This document shows positions 4,146-57,645 of a stretch of DNA of 64,000 nt, piece by piece. Source of the DNA: Octopus sinensis (Eukaryota); NCBI RefSeq assembly GCF_006345805.1, contig NC_043012.1, positions 37,014,001-37,078,000 on the forward strand, in the 5' to 3' direction. A program made the translations under genes and the position numbers. The notes beneath the pieces are model-generated. The model saw only the letters and a list, made by a program, of their open reading frames with translations. It did no database searches and was not told where the DNA came from. Within the stretch, counting starts at the first letter, position 1. Each line of letters begins with the position of its first letter.

Positions 4146-4230
<85 letters not shown>

Positions 4231-4251
4231 TATTATATATATATATATATA

Positions 4252-4907
4252 TAATATTAGGGAGTATGGCTCCAAACTTATAGGGAAAAATTAGATTTAG
4301 GATTAAATTAAATTTCACAGTATAAATATATAAAATATGAATAAACACTATTAGGCAACTCAAACAGTGATAGACATAAACTAATACATAAATAACAAAT
4401 AATATAAATATAATTAATATAATATATAATATATATATAAAATATAAAATTGAAATTTTTAATTTTTTAATTTTTTTTAACCAAAAAGTATAAAAAGGAT
4501 GATATATTATATTTATCATTCTTTTTATACTTTTTGGTTACAAAAAAATAAAAAATAGAAATAAAATAAAAAAAATTTTAATTTTATATTTTATATATAT
4601 ATTATATATTATATTAATTATATTTATATTATTTGTTATTTATGTATTGGTTTATGTCTATCACTGTTTGAGTTGCCTAATAGTGGTTTTATCTCTAATT
4701 CATATTATATATATATATTTAACAATTAAGGATAACCTCTTAATAAGGAATCTTAACAAGAAATTATCAGGTAGTTAGCGTGAAAACCTCATAAAAGAAA
4801 AGAATTCGAAAATAATTTTTTTCTTTTAGGTATGATTAGTGTAATTTTGGTAGTAATGACTTTGTCCCTCTTAGTGTGAGGCATTTATGTGTAATAATGC
4901 CCTCTAT

Positions 4908-4951
<44 letters not shown>

Positions 4952-5410
4952 GCTATACCCTCCTCATTTTCCCTATTTGTCTCTGATGACGGAATATCCC
5001 ATACATTGGGACATCCTAGAAACAGCTGTAAGAATTTGAATTTTTCCAATAATAATGTACAGAGTGCAGCAAAGGGATCTGACACATTTGTAGGTTTAAT
5101 AAAAGTGAAATTGAATAAACAATGATAAATATGGTTTTATTTTCGAAATGTTCATATTATGCTATTTTGTTTCAATTGGTGTCATTTGGGAAATTTTGTG
5201 AGATTTTGTTCTTTACTCTTTTTTGCTCTTATTAAACCTACAAATATGTCAGATCATTTTGCTGCACCCTTGCCTTAACGTTTTTTGTCCTCTCTAACAC
5301 TTATATATATAAACAACTTCGTTGTTTATAATTTTAACCTTAAAGGCATTTTAATATGCTGCTACATTTTCTGATGAAATTTTTTCTGTAAAAAAGCTTC
5401 ATCCTATATT
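4252..5410 (+). mobile_element. AT-rich non-coding element between (TA)n tracts with internal inverted repeats and a hammerhead motif (putative non-autonomous Penelope-like element)
   Basis: Both ends match, in reverse complement, the ends of 30302-31125 (4252-4320 with ~31054-31125; 5336-5410 with 30302-30370). Contains IRs at 4346-4685 and 5061-5270 and a hammerhead at 4980-5033. Confidence 0.5.
4980..5033 (+). ncRNA. Hammerhead-ribozyme-like motif (type I, minimal, Penelope-style palindromic stem III)
   Basis: tct-CTGATGA (4983-4989); stem II core ATATCCCA/TGGGACAT; GAAA (5019-5022); palindromic ACAGCTGT; GTA triplet at 5028-5030; stem I TCT/AGA. Confidence 0.6.
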
Positions 5411-5420
5411 AGTAGTATAT

Positions 5421-5454
<34 letters not shown>

Positions 5455-6536
5455 GATATAATATAAATAATATATAAATATATGCATATATGTACATACC
5501 TACATCTATATGTATATATACATGCATATATGGGTACAGGACATCAAAAAAACGTTGAACACAGTGAGAAACGAAAACATAAAAACAAAAACATGGAAAT
5601 GAACTTTTTTTCAAACAACGAAAAAAAAAACAGAGTACAAGACATACAACACAAGGAATATTCCCCTTCTTGAGTTATCCTATGACTGCGAGTCCACTGC
5701 CCTAACCACTGAACCATTGAATCTCCACTGTACAAACATATACATACAATGTAATCAAACAAATAAGTGCTTGATAAAGTCAAATAAAGGGAGATAAAAG
5801 TTATTTGTTCCCTATTCTCAGTACTGTCTTGCCTGAAGATCACACACAAGAAACTCCGACACACTCAGACACAGCTTTGAACATTGACTTTATCTATCGT
5901 CATCAACAGAATTCACTTTTCTGTGCTGGAGCATCACCTTGAAGGGCTTTTAGTCGAGCAAGTCAAATCCAGGACTTATCTTTTTTAAGCATAGCCTTTA
6001 TTTCATCAGTTTCTTTCTCAAATTGTTAAGTAACAGGGACGTAAACACACCAACACTGGTTGTCGAGTAATAGTGGTGGTGGGGGGGGGGCAAACACAGA
6101 CTTCTTTCTCAGTTTCCGTTTACCAAATCCACTCTCAAGACTTTAGTCAGCCCACAGTTATAGTAGGAGACAGTGGGACAAGATACAAGGCAGTGGGATT
6201 GAACTCAGAACCATGTGGTTGGTAAGCAAGCTACTTAACACACAGCCACACCTGTGCCTATATTTATTTATGTTTTACCTTTTATTTTATGCTTCGAAGG
6301 GATTTTCTCAAACAAATCAATTTCAGTACTTGATTATTTTTTCTCTTTTCAAGTCCAATACTTGTTCTATCGATATCTTATGCTGAACTGTTAAGTTACA
6401 GGAATGCAAACAAACCAAGGATGGTGGTAGACAAATACAAACAAAGACACACACACACACACACACATACATATGTGTATGTGTGTGTGTGTGTGTAAGC
6501 ATCTATATCTATCTAGCTATATATATATATATATAT

Positions 6537-7030
6537 CATCATCATCATCATCGTTTAACGTCCGTTTTTCCATGCTAGCATGGGTTGGACGGTTCAACTG
6601 GGGTCTGGGAAGCCCGAAGGCTGCACCAGGCCAGTCTGATCTGGCAGTGTTTCTACAGCTGGATGCCCTTCCTAACGCCAACCACTCCGTGAGTGTAGTT
6701 GGTGCTTTTTATGTGCCACCGACACAGGTGCCAGACGAGGCTGGTGAACGGCCACGCTCGGATGGTGCTTTTTACGTGCCACCAGCACGGAGGTCAGTTG
6801 ATGCGGTGCTGGCTACGGCCATGTTTGGATGGTTCTCATGTTCCACCGGCACTGGTACCACAACTACAAAGTCCATTGATGTTGATCGATTTCGATTTTG
6901 ATTTGATTTTTGGATTTAATTTTCACTTGCCTCAACAGGTCTTCACAAGTAGAGTTATGTGTCCCAAGAAGGAAGGTATGCACAGGTGGACTGACTACAT
7001 CCCAGGTAGGGGCCACGGGTTATGGACTCA
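6537..7030 (-). mobile_element. Repeat family C: short retroposon ending in (GAT)n, probably an RTE-mobilised SINE-like element (copies near 9480, 22730, 26745, 33860, 34140, 34560, 38300, 39655)
   Basis: Conserved (CAT)n-CGTTTAACGTCCG...CATGCTAGCATGGGTTGGACGG...GGATGCCCTTCCTAACGCCAACC, followed by a variable number of GGTGCTTTTTACGTGCCACC sub-repeats. Confidence 0.75.
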
Positions 7031-7031
7031 C

Positions 7032-7039
7032 AGACAGAC

Positions 7040-7118
<79 letters not shown>

Positions 7119-7150
7119 GAGATAGATAGAAAGATAGATAGATAGATGTA
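7032..7150. repeat. (GATA)n microsatellite
   Basis: Directly visible GACA/GATA array. Confidence 0.95.
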
Positions 7151-7429
7151 GATATGTATGTATGCCTCTATCTATCTATATGAATATATATATATATGGT
7201 TTAACCAGGGCTAGTAAGTTGGAAGGCTGCACCAGACTCCAGTTTGATTTGGCATAGTTTTCTATGGCTCGATGCCCTTCCTGGTTGGCATTAGGAAGGG
7301 CATCAAGCTGTAGAAAACCATGCCAAATCAGACTGGAGTCTGGTGCAGCCTTCCAACTTACCAGCCCTGGTCAAATCCTGTCCAACCCATGGACAACGGA
7401 CATTAAATGACAATGATGATGAATATATC

Positions 7430-7750
7430 ATGGCTTAGTGGCTTAGTGGTTAGGGCATTTGGCTTACAACTGTAAGGTCATGAGTTCAATTCCCAGCATT
7501 GCATTGTGTCCTTGAGCAAGACACTTTATTTGAAGTTGTTCCAGTCCACTCAGCTGGCAAAAATGAGTTGTAGCTGTATTTCAAAGGGCCAGCCTTGTCA
7601 CACTCTGTGTCAGGCTGAATCTCCCTGAGAACTATGTTAAAGGTACACATGCCTGTGGAGTGCTCAGCCACTTGAATGTTAATTTCAGGAGCAGACTGTT
7701 CCGTTGATTGTATCAGTTGGGACCTTCCTTGTCGTAACTGATGGAGTGCT

Positions 7751-7752
<2 letters not shown>
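7430..7752 (+). mobile_element. tRNA-derived SINE family D (also at ~20005-20280, with a related head at ~15530)
   Basis: TGGCTTAGTGGTTAGG A-box and GAGTTCAATTCC B-box head. The body (CCTTGAGCAAGACACTTTATTT...GTGGAGTGCTCAGCCACTTG) is shared with 20005-20280. Confidence 0.75.
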
Positions 7753-7841
<89 letters not shown>

Positions 7842-8234
7842 GTAATAATAACAATGATCCTTGAATGAAATTTATAAACATCTTAATGCCTGTTTCCACA
7901 CATCAGATGTCTCTTAAGATTACAGTCTGTATTCCTGCGATGGTTACAGTGTAGTCCATAGTATATATATATGATGGGCTTCTTTCAGTTTCCCTCTACA
8001 AAACCCATTCACAATTTCTTTGGTTGGCCTGGCTATAGTGAAGAACAGATGCCCAAGATACCACACAATGAGATAGAACCAGAAACCATATGGTTGGGAA
8101 GCAAAGTTTTTAACCACTCAGCCACTTCTGCATCCATTTATTCTTTTATTTTTAATAGATCAATCTAGAAACAGATCACAACTTGGCAAATTTCTTTATT
8201 TTTTTATGCTAATAATCCCCAGAAAAAAATATTA

Positions 8235-8395
8235 GGCGCAGGAGTGGCTGTGTGGTAAGTAGCTTGCTAACCAACCACATGGTTCTGGGTTCAGTCCCAC
8301 TGCGTGGCATCTTGGGCAATTGTCTTCTGCTATAGCCCCGGGCCGACCAATGCCCTGTGAGTGGATTTGGTAGACGGAAACTGAAAGAAGCCTGT

Positions 8396-8432
<37 letters not shown>

Positions 8433-8654
8433 TTGTGTGTCTGTGTTTGTCCCCCTAGCATTGCTTGACAACCGATGCTGGTGTTTTTACGTCCCCGTCA
8501 CTTAGCGGTTCGGCAAAAAGAGGCCGATAGAATAAGTACTGGGCTTACAAAGAATAAGTCCCGGGGTCGATTTGCTCGACTAAAAGGTGGTGCTCCAGCA
8601 TGGCCGCAGTCAAATGACTGAAACAAGTAAAAGAGTAAAAGAGAGTAAAGAGAG
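8235..8654 (+). mobile_element. tRNA-derived SINE family A, near full-length copy (other copies or fragments include 5919-6258 -, 24310-24686 -, 35465-35610 -, 38931-39075 +)
   Basis: A-box-like TGGCTGTGTGG and B-box-like GGTTCAGTCC head, internal (TA/TG)n, and GTAAAAGA tail repeats. Many interspersed copies occur in the window. Confidence 0.8.
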
Positions 8655-8717
8655 ACCCATTTACTGCAAGATATAATACAATGATTTTACACTGAATCAA
8701 AGGAAACCAGTATTTAT

Positions 8718-8780
<63 letters not shown>

Positions 8781-9169
8781 ATATATATACACATATATAC
8801 ATACACATATATACACATATATATGTGTGTGTGTGTGTGATGATGATATATATATATATGTTTCAGTAAAGCTATATAATCTCCACCTCTATCCACACCT
8901 CGCACCTACTTCTTTCTTTAATATTTTTTCACACTATAAAATATATATATAGGAAAAATATTGACACCCATTCATTGATTGTGTGTGGTTGGGGTGGGGG
9001 TGGGGTATGTGTGTGTATATATATATATATATACCGGAGTAAACACATAAATGTGAAACAAGGTGGAAAAAAGAGTACTCAAATACCAGTGGTAGTGTAA
9101 TATGCTTTATTTAAAGTAAAAGAAAATTCAACAATTGAATTTGTTGAATTTTCTGCTGCTTTAAATAAA

Positions 9170-9220
<51 letters not shown>

Positions 9221-9245
9221 CACATATGAGAATGTCTATCAGTTA

Positions 9246-9276
<31 letters not shown>

Positions 9277-9287
9277 ATCTAACTTTG

Positions 9288-9354
<67 letters not shown>

Positions 9355-10270
9355 GTGTATTTATACAATATATATATATATATATCATCATCATCATCAT
9401 CATCATCAAACCATCCTGTCAAACCATCCAACCCATGCTAGCATGGAAAGCAGACATTAAATAATGATGATGATTTATATATATCTACAGCTGGATGCCC
9501 TTCCTAACGCCAACCACTCTGTGAGTGTAGTGGGTGCTTTTTACGTGCCACCGGCACAGGTGCCAGACGAGGCTTGCAAATGGCTACGATCAGATGGTGC
9601 TTTTTACGTGCCACCGGCACGGAGACCAGTCAGGGCGGCGCTGGCGATGGCCACGTTCGGATGGTTCTCTTACGTGCCACTGGCACTGGTATCACAGCTA
9701 CAAATTCCATTGATGTTGATAGATTACGATTTTGATTTTCACTTGCCTCAACAGGTCTCCACAACAGAAACAGGTACAACAGAAACAGGAAGTAAGAGAA
9801 AGTTGTGGTGAAAGAGTACAGCAGGGATCACCACCATCCCCTGCCGGAGCCTCGTGGAGCTTTAGGTGTTTTCGCTCAATAAACACTCACAACACCCGGT
9901 CTGGGAATCGAAACCGCGATCCTATGACCGCGAGTCCGCTGCCCTAACCACTGGGCCATTGCGCCTCCACTGGTGCTGATAACTGCTCTGATGTCAGTTG
10001 ATGTGTAAAACCTGAGCATGACTGACCTTCTGAAGCAGGAATGGGAAACCTTGAAATGGGCCACATGAGGCACGGTTCATCCTCAGATGGTCCACACTAC
10101 AAACAATCCAAGGTTAACATTCATTGTCTTGCCATTTAGACAGTCCCATGGGTTGTAGTTTACCCATGGACAGTCCCAAAGGATGTTTTGACTCAGGGCC
10201 TCCTTGAGAAATTTTTTAAGGTGAAACAAGACCACTTTTGAGTTCCCGGGAGGCACTTGATTCCCTAGAA

Positions 10271-10471
10271 CAGTGCTTTTCAAACTTTTTACTGGAGCGG
10301 AACCCCAAGAAAACATTCCACTGGCCCGAGGAACTCCTGTGCAATAATTTAATAGTTTTATGCACACATATCTGCACAGGAGAATTAAAAATTATTGCTG
10401 ATTTTAGCAGTTTTGTAACTTCTTGCGGAACCCCTGGACTGTACTGGCGGAACCCTGGTTGAAAACCACTG
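10271..10471. mobile_element. hAT (Charlie-like) MITE, 201 bp
   Basis: TIRs CAGTGcTTTTCAA / TTGAAAAcCACTG, with a perfect 8-bp TSD CCCTAGAA at 10263-10270 and 10472-10479. Confidence 0.88.
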
Positions 10472-10969
10472 CCCTAGAATCATCAGAGACAGGTCATCAC
10501 AAAATTCAAAGTGGAGGAAAAGGGTCTTTCAGATATTTATTGAGCCCTGGATTAATACACAGACAGAGCCCCACTCTTATAGATTCTGTTCAAACTTAAT
10601 TTATTCCCTGGTTTATCCCCACTGGCACCATCACCACTACAGTTACCATCTCTGCCGCCACCACCACCTCCATCACTGCCACCACTGTCGCCACTACCAG
10701 GTCCTTGAATGCTTGTAACAGTGTCCACTCTGTTGCAGCCATTTGAACTTGTCTGAGAATAACTACCTGACTATTTCCAGGGCCCCTGAGAAAGGTCATA
10801 CACACTAACCTTCCTACACTGCTAAACCTGTCAGGAAATATGTAATTGAAATCGAAAATATTAGGAAATTAAAGAATGGTATTTTATTTCCAATAAAAGA
10901 CTGTTCCTGTCACCTTCTTCAGGATGATGGCATCTTCTGATCATATCTAGGAATATTATGGAGACAATT

Positions 10970-11380
10970 AAGGCAGCAAGCTGGCAGAATCATTAGTACT
11001 CTAGTTCAAATTCCACTGGGGTTGGCTCCACCTTTCATCCTTTTGGGGTCGATAAAATAAATACCTGTTGTACACTGGGGTCGATGTAATCGCCTTACAG
11101 TCTCCCCCAAAATTGCTGGCCTTCTGCCAAAATTTGAAACTAGTGTTACAGGGACATTCAAGGCAACGGGCTGGAAGAATTGTTAACATACTGGGCAAAA
11201 TGCGAAGTGGAATTTCATGTATCTTTGCATTCTGAGTTCAAATTCCACTGAAGTCAACTTTGCCTTTCATCCTTTTGAGGGTCAATAATATAAGTACCAG
11301 ATGGGCACTGGGGTTGGTCTGATCAACTTAGAAACTCCTCTGGAATTGCTGGCCTTGTGCCAAAATTTGAAATAAATATT
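10970..11380 (+). mobile_element. Two tandem SINE family B copies
   Basis: Two successive GGC..GCTGG.AGAAT...GTTCAAATTCCACTG...CCAAAATTTGAAA units. Confidence 0.75.
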
Positions 11381-11959
11381 ACTGAAAGATTTCTTTAACT
11401 TCCTTGCTCGCCTTTTAATTTGGAATTTTTGTTTTCTTGAAGCCTGATGTAAAGAAATTCTGTTTCTTCTCTTTCATTTTGTCTGTTAAAACTACAAGAA
11501 AAACAAAACAATATCGTCTGCAAAAATGAAAGCTTCCGTCGTCTGTCTACCAATCTATAAATAGAATTCTGGTGAAAACCCGGCCCTTTTCACCAGGTTA
11601 TTGACCAGTCGCTTCTTTATGGATTAATCTGGGAGCTCACTGAAGGAATTCAGGAATTATCCTGAGAACAATTAACAGACAGACAAACACTTGTTTTCAT
11701 AAGGCTTCCTCATATATTCGGATTGCTATGCTCATTATCTAATAAGCAGCTAATCAAACCGAGCCATCGAATATCTCCCGCACTGGTTATTCCCGTCTGT
11801 GCTTGATATCGCATATATTGCGCAGTGGTTTTTATTATTAACTGATGTAATATTAATTAATTGTGTCGATGTGAATGGCATAAACAGCTGAGAAAGAAGG
11901 GGAGGTAATCGCAAGTGTGTTGTCAAGAGTTGGTTCCCCCTGTTCTGACCATTGTTTAC

Positions 11960-12000
11960 TAGCGCCACTCGGTACTTCCGATCAGAGGCACAAGATGGCG
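11960..12000 (+). promoter_or_regulatory. Candidate TATA-less promoter/5' region with ETS-like (ACTTCCG) and YY1-like (CAAGATGGCG) motifs
   Basis: ACTTCCG at 11974-11980. CAAGATGGCG at 11991-12000 overlaps the start codon. The region is locally CpG-rich against a CpG-poor background. Confidence 0.4.
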
Positions 12001-13657
12001 GACTCCAGCACCAATTCCGATTTGGCTGCACCAACCTCGTCGCATCACGGCGAAACGGCTTCGATCGCCGTGGTGGATCTGGAGGAGGACGTTCAACAAC
12101 CGAACGGCAACGAGATCAACACAAATACAACGGCGACAACAGACAAAAAGAGCTGTGCTGCGTCTTCAACACCCAAACACAGTAACAGTAATAATAATAA
12201 TAATAATCATTCACAACAACAACAACAACAACAACGGCGAGAGGAGGACGAGGTGGAGACTGACGAGGAAAACATGTGTGGTGTTGAAGATGACCACCTG
12301 GAAGAAGAAGAAGAAGAACACGACGACGACCAGAATCAAGCAGAAGATCAAGATATTGATATGCAAAGTCATCTCGATGCTCTGCAAGTTGTTTGTACGG
12401 CTGCGACGAACTCTGCCTCGTCGGAGGGAGAAGACGGCTGCTCGTCCTCCTTTAATTTCCACATGGAGAACAAACACACTCAAAGGAAAACAGACACAGA
12501 CATGAGGACTCTGAGTTCGTATTTGAAATCTTTAAACGAAAGCCGTAACCCGGAGAGGATACCACCGGATGAACTCGACAATTATTTATCAAGTTTTTTC
12601 ATGGTTGTCCGAAAAGCAGATGGAAGCGAATATGAACCAAAAACGTTAAGAGCAATTATGGCCAGCATTGAACGCTATTTAAGATGCAGAAATTACCCAG
12701 CTTCTATCACTAGGGACTATATATTTTCTAAAACCAGAGACTCGCTGAAAGAAAAGCAAAGAATTCTTAAAGAACAGGGAATCGGCAACAAACCCCGCCC
12801 CCCTGCTGATCCCCTCGGTGTTTTAGTGGCACAAAGGGTTAATCAGTTGTACGCTAAACAAAATATGGGTCCCTACAATCCCCTTTCAGTTGTCAGCACT
12901 CTCATTTTTGTTTTCATTGTTCACTTCAGACTTCGTAAAGCAGTCGACCATAAGAACTTATTGTGGGGTGATATACAGCTAAAAGTGGATAAAAACGGCC
13001 GAGAATACCTTGTTTATCGGCCGCAGAGTCTGCCATCACTTCCACCCCATATAGAAAATCACATTCGTCGCACATATAACATTTACGCTCAGCCTGATCA
13101 ACCGGAGCGCGATCCCGTTGCTATTTATCACCTGTATGCAGAGAAACGGCCTGCATCGATGAAATACAGTAACTCACCATTTTACCTTGGCATTTTTAGT
13201 CTAAATCCTTTACCGTTCCAAGACTGGTATCGTGCCTCAGCCATGGGAATCAACAAACTTTGTGATTTAGTTAAACAGATTCGTTCGATAACTGGTTTGC
13301 CCCGGGCTATGTATGCACAAGACTCTCCTTATCTTAGCCCTCAGTTTATCTCCAATGCCTTGATGGGACCGGATCCCTCGAAGGGAGATGTGAAGGGAGC
13401 TGCCGCTGCCGCCGCCGCCGCCTTAGCCAATTCTCAAGACCTGTCCTGTATGGATACCGTTGTTTACAATGTTGATTCGGACAGCGAAAGTATTACGGAA
13501 CAGCAATCAAATATGTCGTTTATTGGAAGCTTGGAGAATCACTCGAGTATGGATGAGAACATTCACGGGGAAGAGGTTGCTTTGCACGAGAAAGATGCTG
13601 CTGATGATGAAGATGATGATGATGATGACGACGAAAATGACCAACATCCACTATCAG
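11995..13657 (+). CDS. Coding exon 1 of a KIAA1958/ZMYM/QRICH1-like DUF3504 (Crypton-derived tyrosine-recombinase fold) protein
   Basis: Lies in long ORF 11917-13674. First ATG is at 11995 in AAGATGGCG context. After an acidic/polyQ N-terminus come the motifs LDNYLSSFFMVVRKADGSEYEPKTL, IERYL, LKEQGIGNKP, FRLRKAVDHKNLLWGDI, DPVAIYHLYAEKRP, PFYL and WY..AMGINKL, typical of DUF3504/Crypton domains. Donor CAG|GTAGTG follows 13657 (phase 1). Confidence 0.88.
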
Positions 13658-16600
13658 GTAGTGTATATATCTAAATGTATATATGTATATATATTGCTGT
13701 TGTTTTTATAACGTAGTTGCTGTTTATGAGACTGTCCCAACCACAGTTTTAATATCTCCCGTCCCACCACCACCACCTTCACCGTCCCCGACTCGCCATA
13801 GTCATTAAGTACATCAATTAGTCACCTGCTATTTCGGTTTGTAATGTTTTAATGATCACAACTAAAGCTAATTCATTGCTAGGATAGATTACTCACCACT
13901 GGCACCAAACACTACAACTTACACCCTTTCTTTCTCTCTCTCTTTCGTCGTTGTTGTTAATGTTTCATATTCCTGATAGATTGCTCATCACTACACCTCA
14001 GAGCTAGCACCGCCACCACTTCACCACGAGTACCAACACTATCACCAGCACCACCGCCACCACTACAACTTATACCTTTTTCTCTTGTTCTTTATATTCC
14101 TGGTGTATTGTTTACCACTAGCACCGCTACACCACGCCAAAAATTCACCACTGCACACACAGCAGCACAATACCAAACACCTCGCCACTAAACCCAAACA
14201 CTGGCAAGACAACACTTGAGTACTACACTAGCACACAAACACCTCACCACTGTCAACACTACCACCACAGCAACGCAACGCTACACACCACAACCACAGC
14301 CCCTACTGCTGTTGTTGTTTGTAACATTATCCACAACTGTTATTGTGTGGCTCTGTAATTCCTGCAGAGAACATCTTATAAACTGTTGACCCTTAAATAT
14401 TATATCCCTAAACTCTGTTTTACCTTGAACTGGTCACTTGCATGTCACACCTTGACCTTGTACCTATGTTGGTGATCAGATTTTACCTTAGTAGAGAGTT
14501 AATTACAAAGTTCCCATCAGAAATTAATACAATGATTTCTTATTTAGACACGAGGTAGATTGTTGAAAGGGAAGGGGAAGAGTTAGTACCTTGTTGCTAA
14601 TATTTATTATAACCGTCTCCTCATCCCAGATTGTTGAATATAGAAACAGGGTTAGCCTTGGCTTGATTTGAACTCTGAACTGATAGGAAACAAGTTCAAT
14701 ACTGTAACGGGTGCAAGAATAGTTATGTGATTTAAGGACTTTGCTTCCCAACCACCTGCCTCTGGATTCGTTCCCACTCTACAGAACCTTGGACGATTGT
14801 CTTTTACTATAACCTCAGACTGACCAAAACCTTATCAGTGTACTTAGGAGACAGGAACTGAAAGAAGGCCATTCTATACCATCATCATCATCATCATCTT
14901 TGTTTAACATTTGTTTTCCATGCTGGCATGGATTAGATGGTTTGACAGGGGATGGCCAGCTGGGGATCTGTCCAGACTCCAATGGTCTGTTGAGGCATTG
15001 TTCTATGGCTGGATGCCTTTCCTAATGCCAACCACTTAGCAGAATGTGCTGGTTGCTTTTTACATGGCACAGGTGCGTTTTCGCATATGTATATGTGTGC
15101 GTGTATAATGTATGTATAGGTGCAGGTGTGACGGTGTGGTACGAAGTTTGTTCCTTAACCACATGGTTCTGGGTTCAGTCCCACTTTGGATGTGTTCTTC
15201 CACAGTTCCAGACTCACAAAAACTCTGTGAGGAAGTGGATTTGGTTCATTACAAACTGAAAGAAGCCCACGCTGTATCTACATATACATGCTGAACCGCT
15301 AAGTCTACAAGTTTTTTCCATCATTCTCTCTGTTTCTTTTCTCTTATTTCTTTCTGTTAAAGAGCGTAGGCTCGAAACATGAAAGACTTTTTCATTTTCC
15401 TGAGCATCAAACTATTACACTTGCTTGTTGTTTATACACCTGTCTCTGTCTTGTTTTTCTATAAATTTCAACTATATATATACATACACACACACACATA
15501 TATGCGCATACATATATATGTGAAGGCATGTGGCTTAGTGTTTAGGTATGTTGCTCTTGCAATCATTAGGTCGGGGTTTCAACTCCCAGACCTGCTGTGT
15601 GTTGTATTCTCAAGCAGAAAACTTCATTTCATGTGGTTCCAGTCCTTACGACTGTAAATAGGTAACCCTGCAATGGATTAGCCTTCCACACAGAAGGGAT
15701 GCTAGTCCGCTCGTATAACCAGTGGGATGGCATCACTCAGAAACTAAAATGATGCAGAGCACATGTGACAAGCAATGTGTAACAACATCTGATAGTTTGT
15801 TTGCTCATGTGATATATATATATATATATATATATACTTGTATGTGTGAGTGTGTTTATGTTGCCTTGTCTTCACAACGTGTGGTAGTTGTAAATGATCA
15901 CCACTGTTATCCAAGTAGTGTCATTCATTTTCAATATCCTGCGAAAGTGTATCCGGCCATGGGGAAATATTCCTTTACCTGGAAGAAGATAAAGGTGAAT
16001 GACAGCCACAGCATCTGGACAAGTGTCTTCTTCTACAAACCGAGGGTCACAAAAGCCTTGTGAGTGGATTTAGTAGATGGAAACTGAAAGAAGCCCATTG
16101 TATATATGTATACATATGTGTGTTTGTGTTTTTGAAATGTCCTCCCTTCTCTATCACAACTGGTGTTGGTGTGTTTACATTCCTGTAAGTTAGTAATTCG
16201 GCAAAAGAGACTGATAGAACAAGCACCAGGCTCAAAAATGTAAGTGCTGGGTTCGATTGGTTTGACTGAAATTCTTCAAGGTGATGCCCTAGCATGGCCA
16301 CAGTTTAATGACTGAAACAAGTGACAGATAAAAGATAGACAAATGAAGCAAAAGCTTCTTTAATGGTTCCTTTCATCGGTTCTTTAGTATGTAGATATTA
16401 GTTCTTTTAGTAAGTCGCAACAGCAACCACCAAACTGGTGCACCCTGTTCAGTGGTGACTATTTCCAAATTCTTGTGGCAAACAATTTATAATGAAATTC
16501 AGTGAGAGAACCACTTAAAATAGTTGATTGATGTCTCCCAGTATACTCTGTAAAATGGTTGGCGTTAGGAAGGGCGTCCAGCTATAGAAATCATGCCAAA

Positions 16601-17291
16601 ACAGACAATGGCACTTGGTGTGGCTCCTGGTCTTGCCAGCTGCTGTCAGACTGTCCAGCCCATGCCACCATGGAAGACGGACATTAAATGATGATGATGG
16701 TGTATTTATCGTGAGACTGGTTTTGTATTTGGAAAGTTCCTCTCCAAGGAGCAGGCATGCATAAGCTCTTTTATGGGTGACCAACAGCTGACTATACATG
16801 TAAGTATTCCCAGTCTTTGCCACCAATGTCGACAAGGACCATATATACTGGTATCAGTGATGCCACCAGCAAAAGACAAAGAACCAAAACCACCTGTCTT
16901 TGGTTCCATCCCATCTCTATTTACCTGCAGTTTATATTAAGGACATTATATGAAACTTTGGCCTTTCCGTATGGCGCTAGTTGCCTACCTTCTTTCCTGC
17001 TGACCAAAACTTTTATATTTTGGTGTTTTTATTCTTGGCTTTGCTTTGATATCTGGAATTTCTTTTCTAATTCTTAAACAGATTTAGCTTTATCAACTAG
17101 ATCATCGGTATACAGAATTTCCTAAGGACATCTGGTTTTAAATCCCTTTATCATGACCTAAAGAGGAGGAGACTATGAACCAAACCCTGGTGGACACCGG
17201 CCTACATACAAAATTCCTCATTGCTGACTTTCACTTTGTTGGTAGCATTTCTGAACAGGGCTTTCATAATTCTTACAATCCATTCATCGAC

Positions 17292-21600: not shown

Positions 21601-22480
21601 ATCCCTAACTCTTCTTCCTTCTCATCAGATGCTTCAATTGAAATATCCCTAAATATCTGATTGCTCAATGGGTCTTTGAGTTTCCATACCCTCCTTTTCC
21701 AAACTCGTTTGTATCTCTGAGTCCTTTTGGATCTAAGTCTGAAGTCACTAACAACCAAACTTATGTTAGATTGTACACCTTTCCCTTGGAAAGGAGTTTG
21801 CACTCCCAAGCATCTACCTTCCCCATTTTCTTATAAGAATTCAGTCAATCTGGCTTAAGTGCTCCCCAGGTTGATAGATAATTGAGTATCTGGCAGGTTC
21901 TCTGAAGTTCGTGTTGTGGATCAACAAGCTAATGGCATCAGAGAACTCTAGCAGCCTCGTTCCCTCCTCATTTTTAGAACCAAAGATTTAACCTGCCTGT
22001 ATGATTACAGGTAAGTTCACCACCATCCGTTCACTGCAAGGAATGTTTTCTGAGAACATGTGTCCATAGTATCTCATTATTAGTAGTTAAAAACTTATTT
22101 TATTGAAAGAAAAAACAAAAATGATGAATTGATGACAAGGAAATTTTGTCTGCAGTGAATTGACGATGGTGAACTTACTGGACATGTGAATGTACCTCAT
22201 GACATTCATTGGAGTTCTACCCAACATTTCCATTGAAGTTACCATCCATGATAATAGGGTGATTGTCATCTCTCGTCAGGGTTGTGTGCAGAAGGCCTGC
22301 CCCACAGAAACGGTCCTTCTGTTCATCTGCCAACCCAGCTTGTAAAACCTTATACTGACATAAATGTTATTGTGATGGAACCAAACGACAATTCTCAGCT
22401 CAACAACCATGTTGCAAACACTCTGATTGTCTCAATCACTCAATCCAAGAATATGCCGACACCTGTTGCAATTAGCGGTT
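18690..22480 (-). pseudogene. Decayed RTE-clade LINE (EN-RT-3' region) interrupted by MITEs and a SINE
   Basis: Minus-strand remnants DMEKASD, EVGVHQG, CLICGEDVGRNAIKCPQC, RRVWKLKD and WFSHVMQ are homologous to 40375-41285 and carry many stops and frameshifts. Confidence 0.8.
19234..19976. mobile_element. Three adjacent ~230-bp piggyBac-like MITE copies (same family at ~47953-48157 and ~62086-62332)
   Basis: Units 19234-19469, 19481-19713 and 19749-19976 have CC(C)TTT...AGGG/GGGG ends and mostly TTAA flanks. Confidence 0.8.
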
Positions 22481-23632
22481 TTCTAGTTGCTTAATCAAGA
22501 AGAAAACCACCTGTTATTGAATAGCATTGTAGGTGGTTGAGTACCCCACTGACAATTACACCTTTAATATAACCCTCAGGCAGAATGAATGTGACAAGTC
22601 AACCAGATCCTTGAACTAAGGGCTCTGTCCATTTTGGGAGTTTCCACTTATGTTGTTACTTTTGCAAGGTTTGTATTAATCCATTGAAGTAATTGAAGAC
22701 AAATCAAACTCAGGATTTCATCCTTCATCATTGTTTAACGTCCGCTTTCCATGCTATCATGGGTTGGACGGTTTGACCGGGGTCTGGGAAGCCAGGAGGC
22801 TGCATCAGGCCCAGTCTGATCTGGCAGTGTTTCTACAGCTGGATGCCCTTCCTAATGCCAACCACTCTGTGAGTGTAGTGGGTGCTTTTTACGTGCCACC
22901 GGCACAGGGGCCAGGCCAGGCTGAATTCTTTTCATGCCATCATCGTCATCATCATTGTGTTAACGTCCCCCTTTTCCATGCTGAAACGGCTCAGATGAGG
23001 GCTGTTGAGGCAGATTTTCTATGGCCGGATGCTCTTCCTCTTGCCAACCCTTACCTTTTCCCCCAAACAAAATAACCACTGGTATGAATGGTGAAGCACT
23101 TGTTTACAATGAATGTAGGACCTCCTGCATGTATACACTCTCACACACATACCCATACACACAACAGGCTTCTTTCTGTTTCCATCTACTGAATCCATTG
23201 AAAGGGTTTGCTCAGCTTGGGGCTGCAGGAGAAAACACTTGTTCAAGGTAACCTTGCAATGGGAGTAAACCCAGACCACATGGTTGCAGAGCAAACTTGC
23301 ATATAAAATATGTCTACATGATGGTTGTCTACTCAGCACAGATAAGCACAGGCATTGCTGACCCTTCTGTGCAACTGTTTTCAGTTGAGTATGGCTTGCA
23401 CAACCCCACAACGACTCTCATTAACCCAGGAACCCAGAGATGAGCAAAGTGCAAGATATCCAGCTCCACAGAGCAGTGGGTTTTATATACAAGTTAGCCT
23501 TCTCCTAGAGGGATGTCATGACAAAGACTAGGGGCCCTTCGGACACCAACCCAAGTATTTCTACATCATGGTACTCATACATATATACATAAATACTGTG
23601 ATGCTCTTATAATCCCAGGGTGCAACTGCATG

Positions 23633-24280
23633 TGTAGGCTGTGTCATGTTTCTGTGGAAGACATCACGCATGTGATTAGCAGCTGTCCTAAAATGTCGCC
23701 ACGGTACTACCTCCCTATGAGGCACGATGTTGTTGCTAAAACAATTTACAATGCCATCCGCAAAAAAAGATGGTCCTGAAATAAACTTAGGAAATCCCTC
23801 TCTTATGGAATACATTCATAAACACCAACTCAAGAAGGAATATTGGTGGAATATAATATTCCCATCAAAACTTCTGTCAAATGTAAACATAGCAGGCTGG
23901 GACAGAGGAGCAAAGGTATGTACCATTATAGAGGTCAGCTGCCCTGCAGATATAAATATCTCTTTGAAAATCAAAGAAAAAGCGGATATCTATAGACAAC
24001 TGCTTCGAAACCTCCAGCTTCAATACCCAGACTATGAATTCATATTCAAACCAATAATAATTGGTGCATTAGGTTTTTTTTTGTTAGTAAATGCTTAAAG
24101 GAGAATCTGACCGGCTAATTCATATATTATAAGTGCAATTTGTGAATGGAACAGTAAAAATATGTAAGCCTTTTCTCAAGTTCCAAATGTGAATTTGCCT
24201 GTGTTAACTACATCCCAAAGATGGAGCCTTGTTTCTTTGTTGGAAACTGGGTCCCTCCTCAGTGGAATAGTTATAATAAT
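23633..24280 (+). pseudogene. 3' fragment of an RLE-type (R4/Dong-like) non-LTR retrotransposon
   Basis: CRLC-x8-H-x4-C knuckle, then RHD. After a frameshift come WWN, IIEVSCP.D.NI..K..EK..Y and PIIIGALG. It ends near TAATAAT at ~24273. Confidence 0.78.
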
Positions 24281-25468
24281 TAAAAAATAGAAGGGACATA
24301 CATACATTTTCTCTTTCTCTTTTACTTGTTTCAGTCTTATGACTGTGGCCATGCTGGAGCACCACCTTTAGTCAGGCAAATCGACCCCAGGACTTATTCT
24401 TTGTAAGCCTTGTACTTATTCTATCGGTCTCTTTTGCCGAACCGCTAAGTTACGGGGATGTAAACACACCAGCATCGGTTGTCAAGCAATGCTAGGGGGA
24501 CAAACACAGACACACATATATATACATATATACGACAGGCTTCTTTCAGTTTCCGTCTACCAAATCCATTCACAAGGCTTTGGTTGGCCCGAGGCTATAG
24601 TAACAGACATTTGCCCAAGGTGCCACGCAGTGGGACTGAACCCGGAACCATGTGGTTGGTAAGTAAGCTACTTGCCACACAGCCACAAACGTTAAAAAAT
24701 ATTCGTCTTCATCCTGTTGGGATTGATAAACTAAAAACACCAGTCAAATACTATGGGGGAATAGAATTGGCCAGCACCTTTCTCTCCTAATTGTTGATTC
24801 TGTGCCTTAATCAAAATCCATTATTTTGAAGCTAGTTTACATATAAGAAGGAACCATTTATCGCTGGTGGGGGTGGTTCGGTTATGAGAGTGGACCCAGA
24901 TTTATTGTAAATTCATGTTGGCTGGGACTCAAAAAATTTTATCTGCAAACTCAGCCATACTGGATAAATATGTTGATGGGTGCAAGTGGGGCTGTATGGT
25001 TAAGAAACTTGCTTCAGGTTCGGTGCAGGAGGGACTTGCTGCTATAAAAAACATTACGGCAAATAAATCCATGTGCAACCCATGCTAGCATGGAAAAATG
25101 GATGAATATCATTTTTTTTATAATTCGTTATTGAACTGACAAAGAAGCCTTCATATGATCACTCACTCTGCTAGGAATAGCAGTCAAAGCTCTCTGCCTT
25201 GAGAAGAAAAAGGAAGGACCCATTCATCATAGGTCTGCAGGACTGAGGATGTCCTATAGGTTAAACAACAACAACAAGTACAGTAGTTTATTATTATTAT
25301 TATTATTGTTATCATTATTTTGGCTATTTATTCCAATTGAGGTTAGTTCAAACATGTTTGTGATATTTTTAACTTTTAAAAGCAAAATTGCTGCAGTTTA
25401 CTGTAAAGAAAAACATTCCCACTTATAATAAAAGATGTGAAACCACTTTCTCTGTTCAAGGTCACACT

Positions 25469-25714
25469 CTGGGCTGTGGAGTCAAAACAAAAAACTTCGA
25501 CTCCGACTCCTCTTTATGTAATTAAGTGATTGTGGTCTACATATTATCTCACAAAGCATATGCATACGCTTGTACTTTGAGCAGGCCTATATCTTATAAC
25601 TGCTTTATATTAAAGAGTAGAGATATTGTGAGTCGGAATCAGAGTCAGTATAGATTTACTGACTCTGACTCCAGCTACCCTTTAATTGTTTCCAACTCTG
25701 ACTCCATAGCCCTG
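25469..25714. mobile_element. hAT-like MITE with GACTCC sub-terminal repeats
   Basis: TIRs C(t)GGGCTGTGGAGTC / GACTCCATAGCCCTG, with imperfect 8-bp flanks GTCACACT / GTCACTCC. Confidence 0.6.
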
Positions 25715-27439
25715 GTCACTCCCCTGTTGGACTCCTAGATGTGTTTTAGCCTTCCTCGGTCAGAGATACCAAAGACGGACAAGCCAGAGAGAAGCCATAG
25801 CTCTATAATGCAACAGCCAATATCAATGACTGTCCTAAGGTGGCAAGCGGGCAGAGTCATTAGCATTGCCTGGCAAAACTCTTTGCGGCATTTTGTTCTT
25901 TATGTTGTGAGTTCAAATTCTGCTGAGGTCGATTTTGCCTTTAATCCTTTTTTTGTGGGGGGGGGGGGGTCAATAAAATAAGTACCAGTTGAACACTGGG
26001 GTCAATGTAATCGATTTACTCCCTCCCCCGAAATTGCTGGCCTTGTGCCAAAATTTGAAGCCATTATCATTGACTGATTTGCACTCGCAGACTGCCCAGT
26101 CAAGACTAATGGAGTAGCGACAGCGCTAAGCAATGTTGAAAGAATTTTTTTCTCTATGGTAAAATGCAGAGATTTTTTGCTTTTGGAAATTGAAAACCTG
26201 TCGGAAACCTGTTTGGACTAACCCTAAAGTTTTTAAACCTTCCAACACTGCTTAACACCTCCCCTATTTATATTTGTTCCTTCTAGAAATGTGCCATATA
26301 TCGTTGAGCATAAAGTGCCATAGTTTAGCCCCTGGTCATTCCTGATCAAGCAGGCTTAAGACTAAAAAGAGTCCAACTTTGACCATCACATTTGTTTCAC
26401 ATTCAGTTTTTTTCTTTTTAGTTTTTCCTTGCTTGCATGGGTTGATTGAAGAAATATGTTACCTGAGGCATTGTTTTTATACCAATGGATGCCCCTTCTG
26501 ACGCCAACCGTTATCTACTTTTCACTTAAAGGATTGCTTATTCCATGTATCTTCAAAAGCATGAAACACCTGAACAGTTTTTTGGACTGGAGAAACTGAC
26601 AACAACATTATGTACCATACTTTCATACAAGTAACTACATCTGTAAACACACACACACACACACATTGATATATATATGTCCAACCCATGCTAGCATGGA
26701 AAGCGGACGTTAAACGATGATGATGATATCATCATCATCATCATTAGCATGGGTTGGACGGTTCGACCGGGGTCTGGGAAGCCAGATGGCTGCACCAGGC
26801 TCCAGTCTGATCTGGCAATGTTTCTACAGCTGGATGCCCTTCCTAATGCCAACCACTCCGTGAGTGTAGTGGGTGCTTTTTACGTGCCACCGGCACAGGT
26901 GCCAGGCGAGGCTGGCAACGGCCACGATCGGTTGGTGCTTTTTACGTGCCACCAGCACGGAAGCCAGTCGAGGCAGCGCTGGCATCGGCCACATTCAGAT
27001 ATATGGATGTGTGTGTGTATGTGTATATACACATCTATATATGCATGTGTGTGTGTTTATGTATGTATGAGTAGACAGACAGCCGGCAACAGGCGAAGGG
27101 TCGCTCTTTGTGTTACTTGACTTATTTTCCATTTGTTTCTCTCGTTGTTTGCGTATTGAACTCATTTGCTTTCGTATTTCATGTTGTTTATTGTTAGTGA
27201 CGTCCTGTACCCATATATGCATGTGTGTATATAAATATATATATATATATAACGTACTATTCCGTGATAGAAAATTCAACAAAAATGTATTCCATCTGGT
27301 AAGAGATAGGTATTATTTATTTAAAGGTCACAAAACATGTATTAAAGCGCTACTGAGAGTTTTATATGCTGAGAAAACTCAATCATATTCCTCAGGTACA
27401 AACCACTTACCATTACGAACTAAAAAAATTGAATAATAG

Positions 27440-27474
<35 letters not shown>

Positions 27475-27508
27475 GTTCAATTTTTTTAGTTTGTAATGGT
27501 AAGTGGTT

Positions 27509-27560
27509 TGTACCTGAAGAATATGTTTGAGTTTTCTCAGCATATGAAACTCTCAGTAGC
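27509..27560 (+). ncRNA. Degenerate hammerhead-like motif in one arm of an inverted repeat (partner on - strand at ~27345-27400)
   Basis: CTGAAGA at 27514-27520; stem II ATATGtTTGAG-tttt-CTCAGCATAT; GAAAC at 27546-27550. Stems III and I are imperfect. Confidence 0.42.
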
Positions 27561-30216
27561 GCTTTAATACATGTTTTGTGACCTATACACATACATACAA
27601 TGGTCTTTCCCTTTTTGTTACTGAATCTACATACAAAGCTTAAGGTTATAGTAGAAAACTTGACCAAGGTACCACACAACGAGGCTGAACTTAAAACCAC
27701 ATGGTTGGGAGGTAAACGTGTCAACCACTGAGCCACGTATATCTAGGACTACATTTATTGAAAACTGTTGTTGCACTTACCATCAGCAAAGCATTTGCTT
27801 GTCTGGTACTGCCTACCTATTGGCACCTTCCATACCTTGTCTGTCATTTGCTTGCTTCTATACACCAAGCCATCTACTGACCACCACCTCCAACAACACC
27901 TAGACAGATGATGCCACCCTTTCTTCCTTCCTAACATTTCCACAATCTGCATGCTATTCACATGTAGTATGGGGGGAGGGCCATCCCAACTGCATTATAG
28001 GACCCCCCAGGCAAAGCTATACACTAGGGTCCTTAGTATATATATTTACCGAGAGCAAGTCATGCCATTCACAGATTGAGATGGCACCCATAAGCCTGTG
28101 GGTAGTCTGGGTAACAGGCTGGTGGGAAAGTTTCATAAAGGGTAAGTACCTGTTGGTGAAGAGGGGGCTGAAATATTTCCTGACCCTGGGGAAAACAATC
28201 AGTCTTTGTGATGTGCTTGTTGAGGATATGGGATCACCAGGAGAGATCTTCAGGGTAGGTGGACCCTAGCATGTGTAGAGACCTCTGAAGGTCCTAATTT
28301 TTTGTGCTGTTTATGTTTAACCATTTAGCATTCAACATTGGTCAGTCCACACTATTCTGTAAGGAGCACAGGGCCAGTTTCTTACAGATATTGTAGACTG
28401 CATTCACAAAGAGACTCACCTTTGTCTCACAAATGTGCTGTGTCCTCTCTCTCTCTGTTTTCTACCACTACTCAGTGGCTGTGGCTCATTACAACTTGCA
28501 AGTTTTCTACCCCTTCCACTCAGCACTGTACTCAGCCAAATATCCTCCACTCTCACTAAACAATTACCCAGTCCTTCCAATCCAAAATTCTGGAATTCCT
28601 TCTCGACTGATATTTTCCCTTCAGCCACAAACTTGCAACTTGCAAGAACAACGTTGGTCTCACTTGTCCTTGAAGGCTTGCAAAACCCGTGAAGATCTTA
28701 GTGTCCTTGAAGACCCGTGCAAGTCTCAGTGGTCTTGAAGGCCTGTAGTGGTTTCACTGGTTTTCAAAGTCTTCTAAAGGTCATAGGTGCAGCCCCTTTT
28801 TTCTATACCAATAAAAAAGAAAAAGAAAAGCAACCAGTTGGTTTCAACAGAAATGTTGAAGTAAAGGATGAAGCGTATTAGGGTGTGGAGTCTGAATCTT
28901 TGGGAATCTGAGATCAAATTCCATGCTACCAAATGTACCATTTCTATCCGTGTATGGTTAGTAAAACAAGCACCGTTAATATACTTGTTAGATTCAGTTC
29001 CTCACTACAGAGATTTTGTTTCGTTTTTGACAAGGAAAAGATTCTTTGCATTTTCTCTAAAGAACTCAACTGATTTTGTCCAACTGATCCTTCTCTCCAG
29101 GAATATAAGCAAGCTAAATGAAGTGAATTTGTTGAAACCATTCCACAGTCTAAACCCAGCATGGACAAATAGTTTTGAGAAGTGGGCTGCATGAGACATC
29201 ACTCATCATTGCGAGAGGGCATACTACTAAAATACTGTGGTAATTTTTCGGTAGGCGCCATTCAGAAAGTCTGGGAGGCAGCAATTTGGCCATGGCTACT
29301 CTAGAATCATTTGCTGTTTCCTTAAAAAACTGGACTTGTATCCAACTAAAAAATACAAAAACCTGACATCAAATAATTCCAAAATACTTTTTTTTTTATT
29401 TCTGCCAGATTCTTTGAATGCACATAGAATGTATGCAGACATTGCCAAGACTGATTATTCAGAATGCGGACCAGCAAATGCTACCCTCAGTCTACCCAAT
29501 AACTCACCACTCCAATTAACATATGACAGCCCCAGGTATATGGACAGCCGCGAACAGGGTAAGGGTTTTTTTCTTTCTTTTTTCTTTTCACTTTTTGGAT
29601 TTTGTTTTTCTTGGGTGGCAATCTGCTCCTTGGAATAAATTGTATTCTATTTTTTATAGAAGCATTTCTGAAGCAAATGCTTTCTCTAGCACCAAAACAT
29701 ATTTTTGACCTCTAGGAGAAATTGGTCGAATTGTTTACTTAGTTCAGATTAATTACAATTAAATTAGAATTATTAGATAAACAGTATAAGTATGTGCACA
29801 CACACACAATAGGTGAGACCAAGATATGCACGGAATAGAAAACACATACAAGTGCTCAAATGAATTTGAACTTGACACCATTGCACACAAACGTTCCATG
29901 TGAATAGTTCAGTAATATTTGTGGTTTTAAGCCCTGCAGTGGTGCATCCTCAGACTCGCATCAAAATGTGTGCTCTTAAATTGTGCACCTGCCAAGCATT
30001 GCATTTTGCTTATTTGTTGATGTAAGCCTAATGAAGTGTCACTCTAGTTTATAAAACTGCAAGAATTATGTAACTTTTTACACTGAACTCCTATGTATGT
30101 TGGAGTTAAAGAAAAAGAGTTGGTGCAAAAACAATTGTAACTGGTCATTAAAGATCTGCTAAACTCTGTCTTTTTATTTGGCATTTATATATATATATAT
30201 ATTTATTTATATATAT

Positions 30217-30250
<34 letters not shown>

Positions 30251-30301
30251 AGGTCACTTGCTATGCAAGTACATCTCGTTAATATATATATAAATATTTC
30301 T

Positions 30302-31125
30302 AATATAGGATAAAATTTTTTCAAAAAATTTCATCAATTCGCCAGCATGTTAAAATACCTTTTAAGGTGAATATTATAGACAATTATAAATAAGGGCAAA
30401 AGAAAAAATTTCTAAGCCAATATGCTGAGAAAAAGACTTTAAAGCGTCAATCACCACATACAATATACTTCACTATAAATACGCATCGTGTTGACTCAAG
30501 GAAAGCAAGCAAACAGAATTTTTTTTAAAATTCATTATCTCTATATCAAACGATTTCGGAATTAATCCAACGGATTTTTCTGCTCATCAGCAGAGAATAT
30601 GATAAGAAATAAATGAAATACTTACAAGCACCCATGGAAAAAAGCAGAAACAAAAGTCATGAGTACACATGAGTACTCCAAATATATCTAAATATAAATT
30701 CTGTAGCAAGCTTTCCTAGATTCTGCACGATGCGTATTTATAGTGAAGTATATTGTATGTGGTGATTGACGCTTTAAAGTCTATTTCTCAGCATATTGGC
30801 TTAGAGATTTTTTCTTTTGCCCTTATTTATAATTGTATGTGTGTGTGTATATATATATATATATACACACACACATACAATTATATACATTTTTATTATT
30901 TTTTTGCAATTTACTTAATCATTGGTATTTTATTGTTATTTTAATTTTAATATTTCTATTATATGTAATTTTCTCGATGGTGTAATTTAATTATTCATTT
31001 TGAATTGATAAAAGGTGGTTCTTTCTAATTTTTTATATATATATATTATATTGTGTGAAATTTGATTTAGTATTTCTAAATTGAATTTTTTCCCTGTAAG
31101 TTAGGATTAATATTCCCTCAAATAA
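30302..31125 (-). mobile_element. Second copy of the AT-rich hammerhead/inverted-repeat element family
   Basis: Shares terminal segments with 4252-5410 in the opposite orientation. Has a 110-bp IR (30381-30490 / 30726-30835) enclosing a minus-strand hammerhead and is flanked by TA-rich tracts. Confidence 0.5.
30538..30596 (-). ncRNA. Hammerhead-ribozyme-like motif (type I, minimal)
   Basis: The minus strand reads TCTCTG-CTGATGA-gcagaaaAATCC-gtt-GGATTaattcc-GAAA-TCG-tt-TG-ATA-TAGAGA. This gives a 6-bp stem I, intact core boxes, a short stem III and an AUA triplet. Confidence 0.6.
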
Positions 31126-33720: not shown

Positions 33721-33763
33721 AATATTTCCTGGGTTACATTGCAACAGGAAAGATTTGTGTGTA

Positions 33764-57589: not shown

Positions 57590-57645
<56 letters not shown>

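Follow-up and report, generated by a model that had tools for sequence, protein, structure and literature searches.

What kind of mobile element is represented by two non-coding repeats that share both ends, lie in or near (TA)n tracts and each carry a hammerhead ribozyme motif? The question is raised by a 64,000-nucleotide stretch of the Octopus sinensis genome (assembly GCF_006345805.1, contig NC_043012.1, positions 37,014,001 to 37,078,000), hereafter the window, in which we refer to the two repeats as E1 and E2. We find that they belong to an abundant octopus repeat family with a hammerhead of the type known from Penelope-like elements (PLEs), and we consider it probable that they are copies of a non-autonomous passenger, drawn from two subfamilies that have diverged, of a PLE that targets (TA)n. 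The elements, their terminal segments and their hammerheads are the following:

4252-5412, plus strand: E1, a non-coding element that shares its ends with E2
31125-30300, minus strand: E2, a non-coding element that shares its ends with E1
4252-4322, plus strand: 5' terminal segment of E1, with an AT-rich hairpin, from alignment to E2
5338-5412, plus strand: 3' terminal segment of E1, with an AT-rich hairpin ending about 10 nt before the element end, from alignment and from high depth in sequencing runs X1 and X2
31051-31125, minus strand: 5' terminal segment of E2, from alignment to E1
30300-30368, minus strand: 3' terminal segment of E2 with a hairpin, from alignment to E1
4979-5034, plus strand: type-I hammerhead of E1 from a descriptor search, core 4983-4989, predicted cut after A5030 (GUA)
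30538-30596, minus strand: type-I hammerhead of E2, with the core starting at 30590, G12 at position 30557 and the cut predicted to follow A30544 (AUA)

An initial annotation, made from the letters of the sequence, had proposed that the two elements have their terminal segments in common and that neither encodes a protein, and both proposals are borne out. The 5' ends (4256-4322 against 31125-31051) are identical in 49 of 75 aligned columns and the 3' ends (5339-5412 against 30368-30300) in 54 of 77, scores that were each matched in none of 2000 dinucleotide shuffles, and the 64-kb window contains no copy of either end beyond E1 and E2. A weak 5' resemblance continues for about 100 nt more, to approximately 4420 in E1 and 30950 in E2 (0 and 1 of 1000 shuffles), beyond which the interiors of the two elements do not align above chance: the middle of E1 aligned to E2 no better than shuffles did, and the alignment of 5259-5340 was borderline (11 of 1000 shuffles). 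Tandem Repeats Finder (TRF) found no tandem unit for E1 or E2 in the window, where they are single copies of 1159 bp and 824 bp. The longest stop-free frames are of low complexity and reach 95 amino acids in E1 and 65 in E2, and a 142-amino-acid frame across the 5' end of E1 had no Pfam match. The sole open reading frame (ORF), joining a reverse transcriptase (RT) to a GIY-YIG domain at its C-terminus, that marks autonomous PLEs of the Hydra clade is found in neither element, and because they have no ORF, E1 and E2 are not autonomous members of that clade.

The second shared feature is the ribozyme motif. As the initial annotation had it, each element carries a hammerhead on its own strand, with cores that start at 4983 (plus) and 30590 (minus): CUGAUGA precedes stem II, after which come GAAA, a stem III that is self-complementary and, closed off by stem I, a UA cut triplet, which is the type-I arrangement of CUGANGA, GAAA and UH with stems I to III. 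The hammerheads lie some 190-245 nt ahead of the 3' end. In E1, stem I pairs 4979-4982 with 5031-5034, stem II pairs 4991-5000 with 5008-5017, a C.A mismatch lies at 4990/5018, GAAA occupies 5019-5022 and the palindromic stem III spans 5022-5029. In E2, stem I has 6 bp, stem II is bulged and the near-palindromic stem III has 4 bp and a 2-nt loop. The word "minimal", which had been applied to these motifs, does not suit stem II, which in E1 extends over 10 positions and is thus long. Between the elements the stems have different sequences, as had been noticed, and the flanks of the hammerheads likewise cannot be aligned above shuffles (97 and 241 of 1000 for the upstream and downstream sides).

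Chance resemblance in AT-rich repeats is the simplest competing account of these motifs, and the initial annotation had asked whether they are any more frequent than in shuffled sequence. They are: our third descriptor, a post hoc and relaxed one in which stem II is scored by folding energy, has exactly two intact-core matches on both strands of the 64 kb, namely the E1 and E2 motifs, whereas 200 block-shuffled windows gave a mean of 0.005 (0.05 without a real energy limit), and shuffles of the individual elements reached the descriptor in 0-2 of 3000 cases. A chance origin would fit the fact that E2 passed the relaxed descriptor only, having been missed, because its stem II needs bulges, by two stricter ones that matched E1. 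It would also fit the folding result, in which the hammerhead lies approximately 6-7 kcal/mol above the minimum energy in both elements, and the outcome of focused Rfam scans of E1 and E2, which returned no hammerhead at E ≤ 10. In an Rfam scan of the whole window, no hammerhead was among the best 150 of 279 matches, nearly all of which were microsatellite-driven microRNA matches. Set against the observed frequency and the three base pairs that the family letters of E1 restore (see below), chance is very improbable, and for E1 it is largely refuted.

These family letters come from a comparison of positions 4948-5415 of E1 with the contigs of four of 24 public sequencing runs, at a likeness of at least 80%; all data are contigs, X1 and X2 being DNA-type runs, while for X14 and X15 an RNA type is a guess only. 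The region was matched by 1081 contigs in X1 and 1361 in X2, with a summed depth in these two runs of 44,000-90,000 over 4964-5043 (the hammerhead) and 23,000-90,000 over 5332-5411 (the 3' end), figures that are not copy numbers. For reference, the single contig that spans E1's own insert junction without differences has a depth of 42. Single hammerhead positions are covered by more than 100 distinct contigs, and both the hammerhead and the 3' end are also present in contigs of X14 and X15. The comparison suggests that the E1-type hammerhead and 3' end exist in hundreds of copies or more, in agreement with the multi-copy, non-coding hammerhead family that had been proposed.

The same contigs also bear on the integrity of the ribozyme. 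At position 5012, the majority letter (about 97% of depth; 107 and 104 contigs in X1 and X2) turns an A.C apposition of E1 into a Watson-Crick pair; at position 5017, the majority letter (about 96% of depth; 108 and 106 contigs) does the same for a G.U pair; and loose-end consensuses in X1, X2 and X14 supply a fourth pair of stem I (5034). These three restored pairs represent conservation within the E1-type family rather than two-sided covariation. Judged by the contig letters, the defects in stems I and II are private to E1, and since the majority letters repair the damaged stems, the hammerhead is therefore a feature of the family. The core is less uniform: positions 4990/4991 show CpG-type decay, and U4 of the core (4984) reads C in 20% and 25% of the depth in X1 and X2 and in 64% in X14, with no matching change at 4985 among the variant rows listed (the letters are known for 40 of 59). 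Copies with this U4C change possibly form a subfamily with an altered core, and their share weakens the case for a strict need for cleavage.

We then considered how the parts of the element are joined in other copies. Contigs in all four runs skip from 5003-5059 to 5268-5270, with 35-40 other letters in between where these are given, so that the linkage of hammerhead and 3' end extends to other copies. Loose ends before 5321-5322 (15 records in X1, 18 in X2 and 4 in X15) resemble, by eye, the downstream arm of E2, and the 3' end therefore appears to serve at least two subfamilies. On the other side of the hammerhead, loose ends before 4953 (39 records in X1 and 40 in X2) show the likeness to break just after the internal (TA)18 of E1. 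The commonest copies thus differ from E1 upstream of 4953, which speaks against taking E1 as representative: it may be atypical. Two side observations concern this region: CTATAC is present on both sides of the internal (TA)n (4862-4960), and 4862-4895 resembles, by eye, a diverged version of the commonest upstream sequence in other copies.

The contig data can be read in other ways, of which two deserve discussion here. In one, E1 and E2 would each have arisen once, by deletion or truncation, from autonomous PLEs that are abundant, the depth would come from truncated PLE tails and there would be no independent family. The multi-copy evidence covers only the hammerhead-to-3' half, most copies are unlike E1 upstream of 4953, and truncated tails are described as the usual source of dispersed PLE hammerheads (PMC4209133). 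However, neither E1 nor E2 retains an ORF remnant, and they have the same 5' end over some 70-170 nt despite otherwise distant sequences, and we regard truncation as improbable. In the other, an element that moves at the DNA level and has no clear terminal inverted repeats, of a Helitron/Helentron-like or similar kind, would have supplied the ends and captured PLE tails that included the hammerhead. Fixed ends, variable interiors, subterminal hairpins and one 3' end joined to at least two interiors are all in keeping with such an element, as is an AT-rich inverted likeness of 9-10 nt at the ends of E1. This likeness is not present in E2, however, and no terminal inverted match of the kind sought for terminal-inverted-repeat transposons and miniature inverted-repeat transposable elements (MITEs) was found at the outer ends of the elements. 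Helitrons have a 5' TC, a GC-rich 3' hairpin and a CTRR end, whereas the common 3' end of E1 and E2 reads TTAG and its hairpin is AT-rich. Moreover, the hammerhead has the same orientation and a similar distance to the 3' end in both subfamilies, which two separate captures would be unlikely to give. We therefore hold a DNA-level origin to be rather unlikely.

The favoured reading, a PLE passenger, involves insertion into (TA)n, for which the relevant arrays are:

4148-4257: (TA)n array upstream of E1, the likely target site (TRF, 57 copies)
5416-5531: (TA)n array downstream of E1 (TRF)
4911-4947: internal (TA)18 of E1 (TRF)
30186-30250: (TA)33 array about 50 nt past the 3' end of E2 (TRF)

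Both elements had been described as sitting in TA-rich tracts. This is clear for E1, which lies between long (TA)n arrays, and holds in part for E2, whose 5' flank is 93% AT and whose 3' side consists of a short TA run, about 30 other bases and then the (TA)33 array. The window as a whole is rich in microsatellites (104 TRF rows), and (TA)n insertion is here judged on two sites, the clear one of E1 and the partial one of E2. E2 further lies downstream of a decayed long interspersed nuclear element (LINE) on the same strand (RVT_1, 32081-32545).

We next compared the elements with published PLEs and retrozymes. Among the PLE clades compared, the Hydra clade is the closest match. Its members target (TA)n, as E1 and, less clearly, E2 would. 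Close to the 3' end they carry a single type-I hammerhead, whose stem III is short and palindromic and whose stem II, as in E1, is often mismatched at its base. E1 and E2 differ from them in having no RT/endonuclease ORF and a longer stem II. Counted by eye in File S2 of PMC8557442, which covers 25 Hydra families, a mismatch at the base of stem II occurs in 15 of 25, a short near-palindromic stem III in all 25 and the stem III arms of E1 in four, and (TA)n targets are listed for all families but one. The C.A mismatch of E1 is found there in one other PLE, the plant-lineage PLE-X1_cBra. The form of the motifs thus matches the Hydra-clade hammerheads of that file, in support of the PLE-type ribozyme to which the initial annotation had pointed. 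Within octopuses, the same paper describes Hydra-1_Obim of Octopus bimaculoides, which has no pseudo-long terminal repeat (pLTR) and a fixed end (Craig et al. 2021), and octopus Naiads, which target (TA)n and are without canonical hammerheads. Hammerheads of metazoan PLE pLTRs (Cervera & de la Pena 2014, PMC4209133) resemble that of E1 in that helix II is long, helix I is short, A9 is followed by an extra base and helix III is palindromic, with predicted dimer dependence. Two differences were seen: C.A in the E1 family replaces the usual G10.1-C11.1, and the E1 motif belongs not to a pLTR but to the inside of a unit that has no ORF and keeps its 5' end. A natural U.U mismatch at 10.1/11.1 exists in hammerheads (PMC3088659).

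A third, Hydra-type hammerhead-like motif is present at 54471-54514 (plus strand), approximately 100 nt after a TA-rich array. It has a 5-bp stem I and a palindromic stem III, and its G12 reads A, which fits CpG decay. Its surroundings show no likeness to E1 or E2 above shuffles, and no remnants of a PLE ORF are evident by eye near 54476 in 47 frames of at least 45 amino acids, for which no profile scan was made. It is probably a decayed PLE tail.

Under the reading that we favour, a source copy would be transcribed from at or near the conserved 5' segment, and the RT/GIY-YIG protein of an autonomous PLE, acting in trans, would bind the 3' region of the transcript and nick a (TA)n tract. Reverse transcription would begin at the 3' hairpin, which would fix the 3' end, and full-length copying would fix the 5' end. 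Such a passenger would have neither a tandem nor a pLTR structure. The hammerhead would be inherited from a PLE tail and would probably not be needed for each insertion; with its self-complementary stem III, it is expected to be an inefficient cutter except where two copies pair or a protein assists. For a lizard PLE it is known that copying into DNA begins within a stem-loop that lies downstream of the hammerhead, that it does so at AT-rich DNA carrying a nick, and that mutants of the hammerhead remain able to insert in vitro (PMC11167929); these results fit the fixed 3' end of E1 and E2 and the existence of U4C copies. Movement of ORF-less or foreign sequence by a PLE in trans has parallels in non-autonomous Chlamys elements (MRC1, PMC8557442) and in pLTR-flanked cargo of Adineta vaga (PMC3846280). 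Those cases also share inverted duplications and palindromes at PLE insertions with E1 and E2, but they involve pLTRs or head-to-tail copies and other lineages, and most Chlamys elements are without canonical hammerheads.

Several results weigh against this reading, in addition to the missing Rfam matches, the caution on depth and the divergent upstream parts mentioned above. The terminal hairpins are no stabler than shuffles (z of -1.1 for the 5' and -1.2 for the 3' hairpin of E1; all about -1). The distance from hammerhead to 3' end, 263 in E1 minus its insert and 316 in E2, exceeds that of 23 of 24 Hydra families (87-425), a set that omits one antisense row and one family whose motif is listed at position 49. 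No autonomous partner emerged from the published Naiad, Chlamys and Hydra consensuses that were compared: eight of nine short end or hammerhead motifs are unmatched there, and the match of the remaining one falls inside unrelated sequence. The 5' end of E1 reaches a weak, non-significant score of 15 against Hydra-1_Obim (14 was reached in 132 of 6396 windows and 16 in 25), a resemblance absent from E2. Finally, PLE insertions are typically 5'-truncated or tandem according to PMC8557442, and matching 5' ends are seen in only two copies.

A more specific proposal is that E1 and E2 exemplify a class of PLE passengers akin to short interspersed nuclear elements (SINEs): monomers in which a fixed 5' promoter segment and a 3' RT-start hairpin persist from one subfamily to another, whereas the interior, and with it the entire sequence of the hammerhead stems, is replaced. 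Their life cycle may include circles that the hammerhead cuts and that are opened at a fixed (UA)n junction. We offer this tentatively and regard it as doubtful. If true, such SINE-like passengers would mark the minimal signals for a (TA)n-targeting PLE, unlike tandem retrozymes and truncated tails.

Circular intermediates are also central to the retrozyme explanation. Animal non-LTR retrozymes resemble E1 and E2 in being non-coding, AT-rich and of high copy number, in their type-I hammerhead and in their proposed PLE origin (PMC7229834). They consist of tandem repeats of 150-450 bp and give rise to circular RNA (Cervera & de la Pena 2020, PMC7229834), whereas E1 and E2 are single copies of approximately 0.8-1.2 kb that lie in or near (TA)n and have fixed ends, and no tandem arrangement was seen. 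In a retrozyme-type scheme, tandem source arrays would be transcribed, cut at their successive hammerheads and ligated into circles of approximately 0.6-0.9 kb, a PLE RT would open these at the fixed 3'/5' junction and genomic monomers would be circular permutations of the RNA. A self-complementary stem III would suit dimer cleavage (PMC4209133), the internal position of the hammerhead is what a permuted monomer would show, circles are produced by retrozymes of mussels and other animals (PMC7229834), and dispersed retrozyme monomers occur (Li, Clavereau & Pollet 2026, preprint 10.64898/2026.07.22.740005). Yet both copies are single and larger than the repeats described, the arms of IR1 (the long palindrome of E1, below) and of E2 have no consistent G-U excess, and U4 is C in a fifth to a quarter of the DNA depth. 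We consider this explanation unlikely.

The long inverted repeats within the elements, which had been proposed as a copy-specific trait of the family and as a possible source of fold-back RNA intermediates, are the following:

4322-4718: long palindrome IR1 of E1, best arms 4343-4478 and 4553-4688, 93% (inverted-repeat search)
5060-5272: nested MITE-like insert in E1 after a TA, with 62-nt inverted arms (82%) and a clipped right end (contig skips and its own depth profile)
30828-30885: perfect 58-nt (GT)n(AT)n(AC)n palindrome in E2
30689-30836: upstream arm of E2, an inverted copy of the stretch from hammerhead to 3' segment (148 nt, 89% complementary to 30380-30527)
30380-30527, minus strand: downstream arm of E2, a sequence type that adjoins the 3' end in other copies

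The fold-backs are not borne out as a family trait: the inverted repeat at 5061-5270 belongs to a nested insert, and the downstream arm of E2 is shared family sequence. IR1 seems to have arisen by inverted duplication within the 5' interior of E1, because both of its arms resemble the 5' interior of E2. The insert at 5060-5272 is not present in other family copies (skipping contigs in all four runs); its left TA is present, related ends are followed by TA in contigs, and its ends look like those of Tc1/mariner elements (which have inverted ends starting with CAG and a TA target), to which it may belong. Its arms are far more abundant than its middle, and a contig identical over 5082-5258 at a depth of 162 in X1 suggests a few recent identical copies. 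Fold-back RNA intermediates are weakened by this nested insert, by the lack of a consistent G-U excess in the arms (G-U against A-C 3/0 in IR1, 0/4 in E2 and 8/4 of 30 mismatches in the insert) and by the commonness of palindromes in the window, where 11 of 15 inverted-repeat rows fall outside E1 and E2. Inverted truncated copies and palindromes occur at PLE insertions (PMC8557442; PMC3846280), and in the scheme favoured here the long palindromes would be by-products of template switching or of subsequent insertions, the MITE among them, and no RNA rod would have been under selection. Outside the elements, long palindromes of 160-600 nt lie at 1212-1815 (99% perfect), 7200-7375, 7962-8407, 27322-27587, 33922-34321 and 58072-58235, several of them centred on microsatellites; they may be MITEs or products of template switching or assembly effects.

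Among the other features of the window, 11884-13674 (plus strand) is an exon of a DUF3504/QRICH1 (ZMYM2-like) gene with mollusc-wide conservation, the frame 11995-13671 matching a protein of Octopus vulgaris at 99% identity and one of a cuttlefish at 77%, which places the host in or close to O. vulgaris; a further long frame lies at 41415-42479, and E2 may lie within an intron of this gene. Decayed LINE pieces are present at 32081-33733 (minus strand, RVT_1), at 40136-41342 (plus strand, RVT_1 and a PHD finger) and at 23721-24098 (plus strand), where the sequence has by eye the look of a restriction-like endonuclease and no Pfam match. Within a stretch rich in microsatellites, 57088-57640 and 58159-58710 form a near-identical duplication with a spacing of about 1070 nt, possibly an artefact of assembly, and TRF reports a 157-bp tandem repeat at 34849-35239 (2.5 copies, 96% matches) within a GC-richer dispersed repeat.

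A scan of metagenomes with the 3'-end pattern gave four matches, all of which we judged by eye to be chance (three in bacterial coding-like DNA, none element-like). We found no description of the E1/E2 family in the literature; Repbase and Dfam lay outside this search, so the family may already be catalogued. It is probably an unclassified part of the octopus repeat content. On present evidence it reveals no new kind of ribozyme or mobile element, the fixed ends being its sole unusual trait relative to known PLE-type elements; matching 5' ends without tandem structure, in two copies, could mark a distinct variant. A high-copy ORF-less passenger with fixed ends would reveal the cis signals of PLEs directly, and with its natural core variants such as U4C, which seem to have spread all the same, it would bear on how PLEs choose the ends of their templates and on the role of their hammerheads.

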